The translations under genes were made by a program, and so were the position numbers. A stretch of 64,000 nt of DNA from Pocillopora damicornis (Eukaryota): positions 1 through 64,000 of the forward strand of contig NW_020844161.1 of NCBI RefSeq assembly GCF_003704095.1, written 5' to 3'. Below are positions 37,293-52,794 of this stretch, piece after piece. Position 1 is the first letter of the stretch, and every line of letters begins with the position of its first letter. The notes under the pieces are model-generated. The model was not told the DNA's origin, did no database searches, and worked only from the letters and a program-made list of their open reading frames with translations.

Positions 37293-37364
37293 AGCCAATG
37301 CAGTCGGGTATTGTTACTGAAAATTCCAGATGGTAATTTCTTCAACTGGTTGTCGTTCAACAAC
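37293..37364 (-). CDS. 72-nt single-LRR exon LLNDNQLKKLPSGIFSNNTRLHW(L) (S-type)
   Basis: cttttggtag|...|gtaagt, phase 2-2; paralog of 47400-47471. Confidence 0.9.
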
Positions 37365-40300
37365 CTACCAAAAGTAATGGAAAGGAGTGTTGATTACATT
37401 GTGCTAGTCAGCATGGTGCGGGCACTGTGTATGATCGAAAATGTCGTATTTTGTTAATATTGTAATCTGCTAACGAAGTCCCATTGTCCAGTAACCGATG
37501 TTTTCGGGTTGACACATAGAGACTTAGGGTAGCACTACGATATATAATCTGGTACAAAACTGATTGAGACTCCTCGGCTGTTTTGTTTTGTAAGCAGTGA
37601 AAACAACTAAACGCTTTACGCATGCCTTTCCTCCCTCCTCCTATTACCCATTGTTATAATACATAAGGCTTGAAATTACACACTGTTCATGATTCAGAGT
37701 AATGTCTACTATAAGCCAGGGGACATTGATTGCGAACTTTCAAAATCTCGAAGGTAAATCCCTCAGATTGTTGTCCTTTAGACCTCTAACACAAAAAAAT
37801 GGATGTCGGGAAGAGTCCTTAGAAAGTAAGTCTAGCGATGTTTTAAGCCAAAGGTGAAAGCGACGTAACATGCCTTTGGCTGTATCTGAGGGACCTCTGC
37901 CAATTGTACTTATTCACTGACCAAATCAGACACGTTCTCACTGACGATTCCTTCAGATACTCTCGTGAGCCTATCAGTTAGCATCCCCCTGATGTAGTTT
38001 CCCTTTGATTTCGAGTGGTCTTTCTCGAGTGACGTTTGAGCGGGACCGACATGTAAGTACCTTGATTATTTTGTTTAGGTTCCGTTTTTTCATAATTATG
38101 GGCAAAAATTACAAAAGAACGTATGTCTTTCATTTTCTACATGAGGTCGCAAACTTATTTTGTTTAGAATCGGGTGTTTTCTCTTTATTGTTCCAGACTA
38201 ATGCCTAACATTTGTTAATGAGCTACCCAAAAATTCAGGCAAAGGGTAGAATCTCGCTCAGTCATGTATTGTAGTCTTCAAAATGGGCTAATCTGCTTTG
38301 GTTTGGGTTTATCCCAGCGTAGTCAAAACAAACAAAAATTGCCATTTTGCCACGAAATTTGTGTTATGGAAATATTGTCGTTCCCATTCCTTTCCGCGCG
38401 TAAAATTTTCGCTTGTTACAAGTATCTGCACTCATTTTGCCGCTGTCTCCACAGTGTGTTCATTTGAGCATGCGCAAATGAAAATACTACGTTTAGATTT
38501 ATATTGCCAGGTATAGTCATGGTATAAAATCTATATCCTGTTTAAAATAAGTTGTCTAAGACCTCAGAAGATATGATCAAAATGGAACCGGCATGTTGTT
38601 CTTCTGTTCAGGCTACATGCCAAGGACCGGGGCCAAAATTCATTAGAAAGTTTCGATCTGCGAGTACTTCCCTTCTGCCAACCGGATCGAGCCACCTCCA
38701 CACGTCACTGGTTGACCATGCAGCATCAGTAAAAAACCAAGCGCATCCTTAGACGCTTCTACTAGGTTCTCTGCTAGGTCACTCTCGCTGAAGTACTTGA
38801 GTACTGGTGCTTTGGAAACAGTTTCTTTGATCTTTTCGAAAACATCTTTCTGTTCATGAGTCCAGAGCCACTAGCAATCTTGCGTGTCAGGCGGCGCATT
38901 GGCTCTCACATTTCTGAAACCTTTTTGTAGGAATTTTGAAAGGTACTTCACTAGCTCTATAAATCTCTGCACTGCTGGCACATCTTCGTCCTTACAAGTC
39001 CATTGGATGGCACTTCGCTTTATTTGAATTCGAACTTCTCGTTGTTCAGTTTGATCTGTTTCGCTCAACAACAGTCTTGCTCTATTAAGATTGAGATTTA
39101 TTACGCGCTCGAAATTGTCTTAGTCCTGCCTATGCAGTAATTATTCCACAAATCTAAGCTTTTATCGATCCTACCATTATCTTCTTTGGAAAAGCGTGGG
39201 AAAATTTAAAACAATAACACAAAATGTCTCAACAGTTTTATTTGAAAATATATACGGCGTGTTCATTTGCGCGGCTGCAAAGAAGAACTCTATGTTCCGG
39301 TTTATATTTCCCGGTATAGAGATGGTATTAAATAAAAATTATCTTTGAAATAATTTTTTGTGAGACTTCCAAAAGAATTATTAAGAGAGAACCGGCATGT
39401 TGGTCTCCTGATCAGGCTTCGTAAAGCAAAATTTGCATGCCTTTCAGTCAGTGACATGTACTCTGTGGCTTTGAACTCTAAAGCGGTAGATGGGTGAAGA
39501 CATTGGTCTACATTCAGCTATTCCATTATGCTTATGCATAGTCCTGCAAGTAACTTGATGGCTTTGACAACCGTTCAGATCCAGTGGTTCTGGCATTCAC
39601 TGCTTGGGGCTTGTCAGGTGTTACAGACAGATACTGCGCCTTACTTAGCACTGTCACTGTGGTTTTGCCTAGTTGTTTAGGTCTACTAACGGAGGTGCTT
39701 GAGGCTTGTCTGTAGTTGCTTGGAAGGACGGCTGCTTGGAGATCTTCTTTTGTATCAGGAAGCTATCCGGGATTTTTTTTTTTTTAACCTATGTAGAGTT
39801 GGGTCACAAATCGTTTCTCTCTATCTCTGGTCATGGGTTTCATTGAGTTGGTGGTCTGGACCGGGAAGGAAGTAGTTGGCATGCATGCGCTCAACCACTC
39901 CAGCGAGGGAAAGCTCACAGTCCTTCATAACAGCTCTTGATAGAAAGCCGGCTAGAAGCTTGCCTTTACAGGCTTGTAGCGTATCTCGTAGTCATACTGC
40001 TGAAGTCGCGACAAGGTGCTCTAGTCTCTTGGGTGCTGATGCCAGTGGCATTGTATAATGAAGACCAGGGCTTTTTGATCAGTCCGCAGAATAACTTTCT
40101 TACCGAACACATATTGGTGGTTATGCACCATGCCAAAAACTGGGACAAAAAATTACTTCTCGATCTGGGAATACTTCCTCTCTGCCAACGGAAGCGCCCC
40201 TCTTCCAGATATCACTGGCTGACCATGGTGCATCAGTAAAAAGCCAAGCCCATCCTTGGACGCATCTCCTAGGCCCTCTGTTGGTCCACTCTCGCTGAAG

Positions 40301-42324
40301 CACTTGAATACTGGTAGTTTTTTAACAGCGTCGTTGATCTTTTGGAAGGCTTCGTTTCACTCATGAGTCCAGATCCACTAGCATTCCTGCGTGTCAGGCG
40401 GCGCAGTGGCTTTCGCATTTCTGAAAGCTTTTGTAGTAATTTAAAAAGGAACTCCACTAGCCCTATAAATATTTGCACTGCTGGCACATCTTTGTTATCA
40501 AATGCCCAATGAATGACACTACGCTTCATTTGAATTTGAACTTCTCCTTGTTTAGTTTGCTCAATAACGGTCTCGCTTTATTATAACTGAAATTTGTTTA
40601 GTGCTCGAAAATTCTATTTTTGTCCTGCCTATGCACTAATTGTTCCACATTTCCAAGACCTTATCGATCCTACCATAATTTGCCCTGGAGGCCAAGCGTA
40701 AACCAGAGTGGATATCGAGGGCTTCTGTCCCGATACATGTCATGAAAGTCGCCGCTCGATGATCGTTTAGCTACGAGTGTAAATTGAGGGTAAATTCCAT
40801 GTTTGACGCCAATTTTTTTCAATTCTTTTCTAGGTACCACAAGATCTAGCCTCAGAAGAACTCAGACATTAGAAGTGAAGATTTTCTGAGATGTTTGAGG
40901 CTTGGAACTGATGCGCTACTGCTGCTATCTGCTTGCGACGTCATATTTGTCAAGGTTCTCTGGCCGTGTCTCGGTCCAAAGTCAGCTTAACCTCGACCAA
41001 AAAACAGGTTAAAAGCTGCTATATGTCTTGCTGAGAGTTTCCTATGCCACACGTAGCGTTACCGGCCCGAAATATCAGAAAAGACAAGGTAAACAGAACT
41101 TTGAACAGGTTTGATAGCCTACCTGCTCCAAAGCACATAGTCCTACTAGGCTACGATACCTTGCAGCACAGTCCTACCACTACAAGACCCTTTTACAATT
41201 TGGGAAGGAAAACAATGCAACAGCCACAATTTTACGCAAGTGGGCGTTCATACTCAGCATTGGATGTGTTCTTGTGATAGTATTTAACAAAAATTATTTT
41301 CGGATTCTCTTTAATTGAAACTTGCGATCGGTATCCACACCTGATTACAAACAGTTATAACGTAAATGACGAAAATATGTGACCAGTGGGTATATAGCTT
41401 CGCATAATTACTATTCTAGCATAAATAGCGTTGACCTTGTTTACACAAATAGTAGTTTTATTGTAGAAATGAACCTTGCAACCCGTATTCAAATCCGATG
41501 ATCACATCATCTGGATCAAATGCACTGTGAATGGGACTTAGAGTTTTCTTGTTGTCCCCCAGACCTCGTGGACTAATCGAAAATAGGCACATTCCATGCG
41601 CTTTATTTCGTACGCTAAGTACTACAGACTTAACCAATGAGCGTATTTGACCTTCAGAGCCTTAAAAACCGGACACATTAAGAGAAACTTTGAACGCAAA
41701 AAGACGCAACTCGGATGCTAGGATAAATTAGTAACCTGCGTACTTAAAATGTGACCAGACTTTGCTTTGATTTGTAACATATGGTGGCTCAAGACTTTGT
41801 AATGTTGCATCATTGATGTTCTTTTTTATCTTCCCTCGTAACTTACAAACTCCTTATTGTCAGCAGATTTCAAATCAAGAACGAATGAACGACACAACGA
41901 GACGCACGGAAAAAGAAAGGCCTCTAGTGGCCATTCCCTTCCTCCACTGCCCTCTTTTCCCACCTCGATGCTCTAAAGGGAATCAGGCCGAGAAGTGCAC
42001 GAATGGAAGACTATATCGTAATTATTAAAGATTAATTTGATATTAGTTTAAATAACTACCAAGTAATTGAAAACTGCATTCTTCCTGTATGTAAGATAGA
42101 TTCCAAACTTAACTTTTTATATCGCGGGCTGACGGGTATATTAAGACTGATCTATCACGCAATAATACAAATTTGTAACTTTGGCGACAAAGCCTGATTA
42201 TTGTTATACTTTAAATGCTTACAGCTGTTCCTAATATTATCTGTTTATGTCTTCTTGTCTTTCTTTACAAAGTCATTAGGCCTGGAGTAAAACTTTTGAA
42301 AATACTCTTTACCCTTTTACTTAC

Positions 42325-42396
42325 AGGTTTATTAGGTTGATATTGTTATTGAATATGTCTTTTGGCAAGTCCTCCAACTGGTTGTTGTCCAAGAAC
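42325..42396 (-). CDS. 72-nt single-LRR exon FLDNNQLEDLPKDIFNNNINLIN(L) (D-type)
   Basis: gctgatag|...|gtaagt, phase 2-2; paralog of 52723-52794. Confidence 0.9.

Positions 42397-51925: not shown

Positions 51926-51956
<31 letters not shown>
51926..51956. repeat. C31 homopolymer
   Basis: Direct observation; the paralogous position at ~41555 has only C5. Confidence 0.9.
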
Positions 51957-51957
<1 letters not shown>

Positions 51958-52722
51958 ATCGAAAAGAAGCACCTTGAATGCGCTTTATTTCGAACGTTAA
52001 GTACTACAAGTTTAACCGGTGAGTGTATTTGACCTTCAGAGCCTTAAAAACCGGAGAGAAATTTTAAGAGTAATTTTGGACGCAAAAAGATGCAACTCGG
52101 ATGCCAGGATAAATTAGTAACCTACGTACTTAAAATGTTACCAGACTTTGCTTTGATTTGTCTCAGAATGGCTCAAGACTTTGTAATGTTGCATCATTGA
52201 TGGTCTTTTTTTAATCTTCCCTCGTAACTTACGAACTCTTCCTTGTCAGCAGACTTCAAATCAAGCGCGATTGAACGACACAACGAGACGCACTTCCCTT
52301 TGGGTGGGAAAAAGAAAGGCCTCTAATGGCCATTCCTTTCCTCCATCCCCTCTTTTCCCACCTCGACGCTCTAAAGGGAATCAGGCCGAGAAGTGCACGA
52401 ATGGATCACTTTACCTTATTTATTAAGGATTAATCTGATGTTAGGGTAAATAATCACCAAGTAATTGAAAACTACATTCTTCCTGTATGTAAGACAGATT
52501 CCAAGTTTAGCTTTTTATATCGGAGGCTGACGAGTATATTAAGACTGATCTATCACACAAAAATACAAATTTATAACTTTGGCGACAAAGTCTAATTATT
52601 GTTATACTTTAAATGCTTACAGCTGTTCCTAATATTATCTGTTTATGTCTTCTTGTCTTTCTTTACAAAGTCATTAGGCCTGGAGTAAAACTTTTGAAAA
52701 TACTCTTTACCCTTTTACTTAC

Positions 52723-52794
52723 AGTTGTCTTAGGTTGATGTTGTTATTGAATATGTCTTTTGGCAAGTCCTCTAACTGGTTGTTATCCAGCTGC
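52723..52794 (-). CDS. 72-nt single-LRR exon QLDNNQLEDLPKDIFNNNINLRQ(L) (D-type)
   Basis: gttgacag|...|gtaagt, phase 2-2. Confidence 0.9.

Follow-up and report, generated by a model that had tools for sequence, protein, structure and literature searches.

Known type C LGRs, the RXFP and GRL101 receptors, are low-copy peptide-hormone receptors that carry one (C1) or many (C2, GRL101) N-terminal LDLa modules. Here we analyze a 64,000-nucleotide stretch of the stony coral Pocillopora damicornis (contig NW_020844161.1, positions 1 to 64,000, hereafter the window; its scaffold is called C796) and the eight leucine-rich repeat (LRR) exons that it contains. These exons likely encode one-repeat-per-exon ectodomain modules of a CUB-Ig-LRR receptor with a seven-transmembrane domain (7TM), belonging to an expanded Pocillopora family related to the relaxin receptors. 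We consider it probable that in this family the ligand-side residues of the N-terminal repeats are under diversifying selection on a conserved scaffold, and that the receptors likely track variable, probably foreign ligands. By comparison with described systems, the family appears to be built like a type C LGR and to work like the LRR recognition receptors of plants, brown algae and lampreys.

Type C LGRs are present in corals and anemones (PMC4079206, PMC9545775; articles are cited throughout for the parts available to us), a Nematostella receptor of this type has added CUB domains (PMC9545775), and the ligands of GRL101 are hypothetical (PMC8286064, PMC6267866). The coral family appears to share with them the LRR ectodomain, a Cys-rich hinge and a rhodopsin-family 7TM. 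In contrast to type C LGRs, it has a CUB-Ig head, many tandem paralogs, a positively selected concave face and about 17-20 LRRs, about twice the usual 7-9; no LDLa was found in the proteins and scaffolds scanned (see below). Lineage-specific LGR expansion without a known ligand is also described in placozoans, with 41 genes and up to 34 LRRs; the available text on these describes neither a CUB-Ig head nor an analysis of selection (PMC9545775). GPCR-linked pattern recognition has been proposed in placozoans as well, for a different class of G-protein-coupled receptor (GPCR; PMC6321704).

With diversifying LRR recognition receptors, such as plant NLR/RLK proteins, Ectocarpus ROCO proteins and the variable lymphocyte receptors (VLRs) of lamprey and hagfish, the coral exons share a ratio of nonsynonymous to synonymous change (dN/dS, omega) above 1 on the concave strand together with a purified scaffold. 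VLRs arise by somatic assembly of cassettes that lack introns, and they have no 7TM; the coral diversity, by comparison, appears to be germline and exon-based. Both have LRRs of the 24-residue class and variability on the concave strand (PMC3341825; the VLR positions are general knowledge). One-LRR-per-exon modularity is known in human genes (PMC6642158). It also occurs in the ROCO and LRR-kinase genes of Ectocarpus, proposed pathogen receptors with intragenic exon birth and death and positive selection on the concave face; unlike the coral genes, these encode cytosolic GTPase/kinase proteins of a brown alga, and their opposite-strand exons are real, whereas the coral strand switches lie at assembly gaps (Zambounis et al, PMC3341825).

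LRR exons and the residues that vary between them

All eight LRR exons are bounded by AG and GT, 72 nt long and of phase 2-2, with one base before the first full codon and two after the last. Coordinates here are positions in the window unless prefixed with a scaffold name (C796, C1185 and so on). Exons are named by their first position in the reading direction, and the residue given is that of the first full codon.

52723..52794, minus strand: LRR exon, D type, copy 1 (72 nt, phase 2-2); Q
47400..47471, minus strand: LRR exon, S type, copy 1; K; D-to-S joins in RNA contigs of two studies
42325..42396, minus strand: LRR exon, D type, copy 2; F
37293..37364, minus strand: LRR exon, S type, copy 2; L
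34068..34139, minus strand: LRR exon, first in the more conserved hinge-side series; D; spliced to 33237 in RNA
33166..33237, minus strand: LRR exon, YLSEM type; Y; in sister loci, seven more LRR exon types come after this one
61236..61307, plus strand: LRR exon, Y type, first repeat after LRRNT; Y
62158..62229, plus strand: LRR exon, E type, second repeat; E
54036..54150, plus strand: LRRNT exon (Cys cap); 89% identical to C796:86059-86172

We number the repeat L1 x2 x3 L4 x5 L6 x7 x8 N9 and so on; the five concave-face sites are x2, x3, x5, x7 and x8. The codon for L4 is split by the intron, so that each exon runs from x5 to the next L1 x2 x3. In an LRR sheet, x3 and x5 point outward from the concave side. 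In the AlphaFold model of a relative, P0006 (pLDDT, a confidence score, of 79), the LRR strands at residues 141-143, 165-167 and 189-191 correspond to x3-L4-x5 and span the exon junction, a predicted strand that agrees with where an earlier analysis of the window, the sequence-only reading, had placed the variable residues. The nearest folds to this model are lamprey and hagfish VLRs, with a root-mean-square deviation of about 1.5 Å.

That reading had compared two pairs of paralogous exons, and its counts, its invariant segments, the residue series listed above and the first codons differing at all three bases were all reproduced. The D pair (52794-52723 and 42396-42325, both minus strand) differs at 10/72 nt and three amino acids; the changes Q/F, R/I and Q/N fall on x5, x2 and x3, six nucleotide differences lie in nonsynonymous codons and four are silent, and LDNNQLEDLPKDIFNNNINL is identical between the two exons. 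All three changes are thus among the five concave codons of 23 (p=0.006). The S pair (47471-47400 and 37364-37293, both minus strand) differs at 13/72 nt and seven amino acids, with NQLKKLPSGIF identical. The first full codons are CAG/TTC in the D pair and AAA/TTG in the S pair. Wider comparison gives the same picture at these sites: nine S exons carry 7, 5 and 7 different residues at x5, x2 and x3, and a single residue at 10 of 13 positions from N9 to I18/F19 and the L1 region, and five D exons carry 4, 5 and 5 different residues at x5, x2 and x3. With so little sequence, no dN/dS test can be based on the D and S pairs alone, and by themselves they cannot show selection.

Evidence for diversifying selection on concave strand residues

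The site-wise dN/dS analysis of homologous exons that the sequence-only reading had proposed was run in pairwise form on independent copies. A scan of 992,135 bases on 17 scaffolds picked by homology (0.4% of the 234-Mb genome) kept 193 stop-free exons with at least 8 of 9 scaffold features; candidates containing stops were excluded. Non-overlapping pairs were matched on the similarity of their flanking introns and on the non-concave sites of the exon, with the concave sites never used for pairing. This gave 65 pairs, or 64 without the exons of the D and S pairs; the S pair itself failed the intron filter. The codon models had one distance per pair and three site classes and were tested against omega=1, and three of them allowed double and triple hits.

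In the 64 pairs, omega at the five concave sites was above 1 in all nine models (1.43-1.86; likelihood ratio test (LRT) p from 0.024 to 1e-4); in none of these models was this pooled value 1 or below, the outcome that the reading had named as evidence against itself. Other sites gave 0.56-0.68 and scaffold sites 0.21-0.32, the latter biased low because the scan required the scaffold consensus, which does not affect the concave estimate. Taken alone, x2, x3 and x5 yield 1.93-2.40 (p<=2.5e-4 in 6/6 models), and x7/x8 is near neutral at 0.90-1.09. By individual site, omega is 3.07 at x3 (LRT 28), 1.57 at x5, 1.55 at x2 and 1.23 at x24, compared with 0.06 at N9 and 0.01 at L1. Bootstrapping over pairs placed the concave omega at 1.18-1.94, and none of the 60 replicates fell to 1 or lower. 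Under neutrality, 40 simulations had a mean of 0.97 and a maximum of 1.39, and none reached the observed 1.54. By simple counting on the first 49 pairs, the proportion of nonsynonymous differences (pN) was 0.17 at the five sites and 0.20 at x2/x3/x5, versus a synonymous proportion (pS) of 0.14 and an intron divergence of 0.11 that is biased low by the pairing.

Within the window's own subfamily, x2/x3/x5 gave an omega of 1.97 (p=0.002). Dividing this subfamily by exon type, a split made after seeing an earlier counting result, gave 4.19 for the N-terminal types (7 pairs, p=1.6e-4) and 0.71 for the hinge-side types (25 pairs); the other subfamilies gave 1.82 (32 pairs, p=0.002). These data show statistically that concave strand residues of the N-terminal repeats are under diversifying selection and that the scaffold is conserved. 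The earlier proposal of diversifying selection on binding specificity over a purified scaffold is therefore supported, with qualifications: concave omega is above 1 and scaffold omega far below it, but x7/x8 is near neutral, the effect in the window's subfamily appears only in N-terminal repeats, and a role of the concave residues in binding specificity is suggested by structure.

Receptor architecture, assembly and exon turnover

Beyond the window, the minus strand of C796 carries CUB exons (99256, 93790), Ig exons (89076, 87050), an LRRNT exon (86175) and further LRR exons (78627, 77702, 76265, 75986, 67402), in the order CUB, Ig, LRRNT, LRR. An extracellular LRR array with an LRRNT cap, as expected of an LGR, is present. 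In C796:86796-100168 the head reads CUB-CUB-Ig-Ig with each exon tandemly doubled; either the head modules are amplified too, or the assembly interleaves two genes. Named relatives of the LRRNT exon 54036-54150 are Ig-LRRNT-LRR fragments from Pocillopora and Stylophora. A search with the LRRNT exon, without a profile, against 1.84 billion representatives returned only six matches, two of them unrelated repeats, and when longer relatives of Ig-LRRNT were sought, one chimeric-looking model emerged.

Sister loci and annotated relatives extend this architecture to the membrane. Exon 33237 has relatives of about 80% DNA identity on C1185, where they precede seven further exon types, and the same exon series reaches a 7tm_1 exon on C3551 and C1070. 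A rhodopsin-family 7TM is joined to the LRR array in P0028, P0061 and P0095 and on the maps of C2801 and C3551; the P. meandrina model P0028 has the YLSEM-type repeat and 7tm_1 in one chain, and P0061 and P0095 of P. verrucosa and P0093 of Desmophyllum have CUB, Ig, LRR and 7tm_1 together. Given these 7TM-bearing loci and relatives, we rejected a single-pass LRR-Ig adhesion protein or a TLR-like protein. Among solved structures a 7TM of the family is most similar to RXFP1 (E 2e-57), followed by TSHR (7e-30) and LGR4 (1e-16), a ranking by similarity only. Of 122 candidates scored in a search of the coral's own genome, 36 matched the 7TM at E<=1e-10, a minimum that includes fragments. Databases label the family 'GRL101-like'. 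LDLa was absent from 3/3 annotated proteins scanned, of which only P0061 and P0095 reach the N-terminal domains, and our own LDLa pattern, used with no positive control, had 0 matches in the 992,135 bases; we therefore do not file the family as GRL101 or RXFP proper.

Some GRL101-like models of Acropora and Porites (P0107, P0110, P0112, P0119, P0126, P0127) combine the 7TM with a kinase-like Tyr/Ser-Thr domain (PF07714), a GPCR-kinase(-like) fusion; in P0112 this domain lies C-terminal of the 7TM.

The layout of the exons in the window involves these further features:

53815..63224, plus strand: contig flanked by 100-N gaps; in reverse it matches C796:86395-76776 at about 82% identity
47382..52880, minus strand: tandem D-S unit, copy 1
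37274..42482, minus strand: tandem D-S unit, copy 2; blocks 77-89% identical to copy 1
52595..52722, minus strand: 128 nt of intron starting at the D-exon donor; identical to 42197-42324, though the units are about 88% alike
47873..47944, minus strand: likely decayed LRR exon, with an LRR-like first half and an off-consensus second half

Both plus-strand LRR exons (61236, 62158) sit on the contig 53815-63224, outside 37293-52794, the interval named in the sequence-only reading; when it is reversed, LRRNT-Y-E falls ahead of D-S-D-S, the order seen in P0006. Across all scanned stretches, strand switches between neighboring exons coincide with assembly gaps in 26/26 cases, versus 33/151 for same-strand neighbors. 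Because every switch lies at a gap, misorientation is the likely cause of the plus-strand exons, and the contig is likely the misoriented 5' part of the minus-strand gene. Invertible or antisense exon cassettes were rejected on the same grounds. Within the LRRNT intron, 54800-59700 is a degenerate Pao/BEL-like long terminal repeat retrotransposon remnant (class from motifs) shared with the paralogous intron C796:85143-81078, and thus older than the gene duplication.

D-S-D-S lies inside one gapless contig (31924-53714) and represents a tandem duplication of about 10 kb; the introns of both units contain Gypsy-like pol remnants, a class read from motifs. The identical 128-nt intron stretch differs in other D copies, which suggests that it is likely a recent gene-conversion tract; the alternative is local assembly collapse. 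A likely decayed LRR-like exon lies upstream of each S exon, with remnants at 37746-37799 and 27800-27884 and related ones on C1185 and C976. Three D exons on C976 are broken, one by a lost acceptor and a 1-nt deletion, one by truncation and one by a lost donor, and one D exon on C796 is 6 nt short. Repeat number therefore changes by birth and death of modules, as the D-S-D-S duplication and the decayed D exons attest. The 307-N gap at 27252-27558 is flanked on both sides by matches to S-exon flanks (37364, 47471), so a further S exon likely lies inside; downstream of exon 33237, the intron unit occurs again at 23500-29800. A 241-bp tandem repeat at C1708:96668-97462 contains four LRR exons that vary chiefly at x5, x7 and x3, an instance of the same process with a much shorter unit.

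RNA came from four runs of three studies, at low depth and as contigs in which paralogs are not separable; stretches that lack RNA coverage are not read as unexpressed. The intron between 34139 and 33237 is removed in contigs of X15 and X16 and in one raw read of X21 (two studies). D-to-S joins occur in contigs of X15 and X16, and the X16 join, read by hand, again has other residues at x2, x3, x5 and x7. RNA joints follow the type order: 34139 to 33237, D to S, Y to S-like and E to G. In DNA (four runs, four studies), many D-type contigs align to exon 52794; among 40 of the 94 rows, the exon positions that show two alternative letters are in x3, x2, x5 and x7, a hint only, as alleles and paralogs are not separable.

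Other features touch the receptor less directly. An intron repeat at 34600-35430 is abundant in the polyA RNA of all four runs; it derives from other genomic copies and was not in receptor mRNA as far as seen. Large inverted repeats (90-96%) at 2185-6279 and 18427-23022 are centered on 100-N gaps (4642, 22225) and are likely mirrored haplotype contigs rather than real palindromes. Past the 5' end of the receptor cluster, C796 holds two plus-strand open reading frames named from motifs, a single-exon trypsin-like protease (126327-127184) and a FICD/HYPE-like protein (144725-145849).

Mechanism, alternatives and meaning

The mechanism that we propose starts from the exons themselves. Since all LRR exons have the same length and phase, with the junction inside the beta strand (x2 x3 L/x5), a repeat could be duplicated, lost or skipped in frame. 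D-S units were duplicated in tandem inside the gene and other D copies have decayed, with unequal crossing-over and conversion among near-identical introns probably altering repeat number and spreading variants. By the statistical tests, x3, x5 and x2 gain amino-acid changes faster than silent ones, and selection would then retune the concave face. The hinge-near repeats and the 7TM may form a conserved signaling unit that couples binding to G-protein signaling, and the receptors could serve in immune, symbiont or neighbor recognition. Such receptors likely do not act as fixed hormone receptors but as variable sensors, detecting molecules that are foreign or change fast.

Several points weigh against this interpretation. 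The general claim of the sequence-only reading, that paralogous exons differ mainly at exposed beta-strand residues, held for the D pair but not for the S pair, where 3/7 changes are on the concave face (p=0.14) and the other four fall on scaffold L6 and on x20, x23 and x24. The five-site test in the window's own subfamily gives an omega of 1.28 (32 pairs, p=0.24), and Nei-Gojobori counting gives lower values than the models, 1.2 pooled and 1.5 for x2/x3/x5. The pairs may contain alleles, haplotigs or unspliced exons, and the retrospective split by exon type, the bias in the scaffold estimate, the thin RNA support and the small share of the genome scanned (0.99 of 234 Mb) belong here as well. 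A search of C796, window included, found no 7TM; the C-terminal half of the window's gene would then lie on another scaffold, and its link to a 7TM is drawn from sister loci and annotated gene models.

The added repeats might bind nothing, so that the concave x sites drift with omega about 1 and the fold alone is selected. Such relaxed constraint would account for values near 1 at x7, x8, x13 and x24, for the decay of several D exons, for the pooled counting estimate near 1.2 and for the nonsignificant five-site test above; given an omega above 1 in all nine models, neutral simulations that stay below the estimate, the value of about 3 at x3 and convex-side x sites of the same exons at 0.4-0.8, we regard it as improbable. 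It is also conceivable that multi-nucleotide mutation, splice-edge mutability or conversion that homogenizes exon centers mimics selection, as x2, x3 and x5 are edge codons that carry 22 of the multi-base codon changes (counted on the 49 pairs analyzed first), differences in the adjacent introns are slightly more numerous than expected (311 vs 264) and the 128-nt tract looks like conversion. Models with double and triple hits, however, retain an omega of 1.43-1.62 (p<=0.024), or 1.93-2.15 for x2/x3/x5; a free rate for edge codons is estimated at 0.95-1.05 and leaves the concave result significant, intron divergence does not rise towards the splice sites, and L1 and L6, neighbors in the same edges, are conserved. 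An artefact of this kind is the least probable of the explanations considered.

Nearly as remote is the idea that the locus works as a set of cassettes diversified within each individual by mutually exclusive splicing or exon inversion: all exons are frame-compatible and lie on both scaffold strands, but the association of strand switches with gaps and the expected type order of the RNA joints argue against it. The main rival accepts the same selection and assigns it to host-made or environmental ligands, such as insulin-like or other peptides and gamete or settlement cues, making these diversifying hormone or chemosensory receptors. RXFP1, among the closest characterized relatives, binds insulin-like peptides (PMC8286064), and in a starfish the sensory tentacles show enrichment of a GRL101-like gene (PMC6267866). 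On the other side, contact-residue turnover in very recent copies together with exon birth and death is the antagonistic-coevolution pattern of plant, algal and lamprey LRR receptors (PMC3341825, and in part general knowledge), and the LDLa module of type C receptors was absent from the sequences scanned; neither observation tests the class of ligand. We judge this rival rather unlikely, though clearly ahead of the other three.

The evolutionary pattern is textbook for immune LRRs; the novelty is the unexpected class of receptor. Hundreds of lineage-specific coral GPCRs have been described, with a role in immunity or symbiosis suggested without residue-level evidence (PMC10236652, PMC6208414). 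In literature searched outside subscription papers and supplements, we found no study describing diversifying selection or exon turnover for the GRL101-like receptors of corals; family counts in the supplementary files of PMC10236652 or PMC9545775 may affect how novel the pattern is.

Tentatively, and with somewhat less than even confidence, we suggest that in stony corals a GPCR resembling the relaxin receptors has become a germline repertoire of variable sensors of non-self, used on microbes, symbionts or neighboring colonies. In it, VLR-like LRR exons with a rapid turnover of both their number and their contact residues would be coupled to a 7TM that stays conserved (joined, in relatives from Acropora and Porites, by a kinase-like tail). 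An immune-type signature of selection on a defined ligand face offers candidate receptors and residues (x2, x3 and x5 of the N-terminal repeats) for how corals may discriminate pathogens, symbionts and neighbors. If this is true, a normally conservative LGR hormone-receptor scaffold would have been reused for variable recognition.

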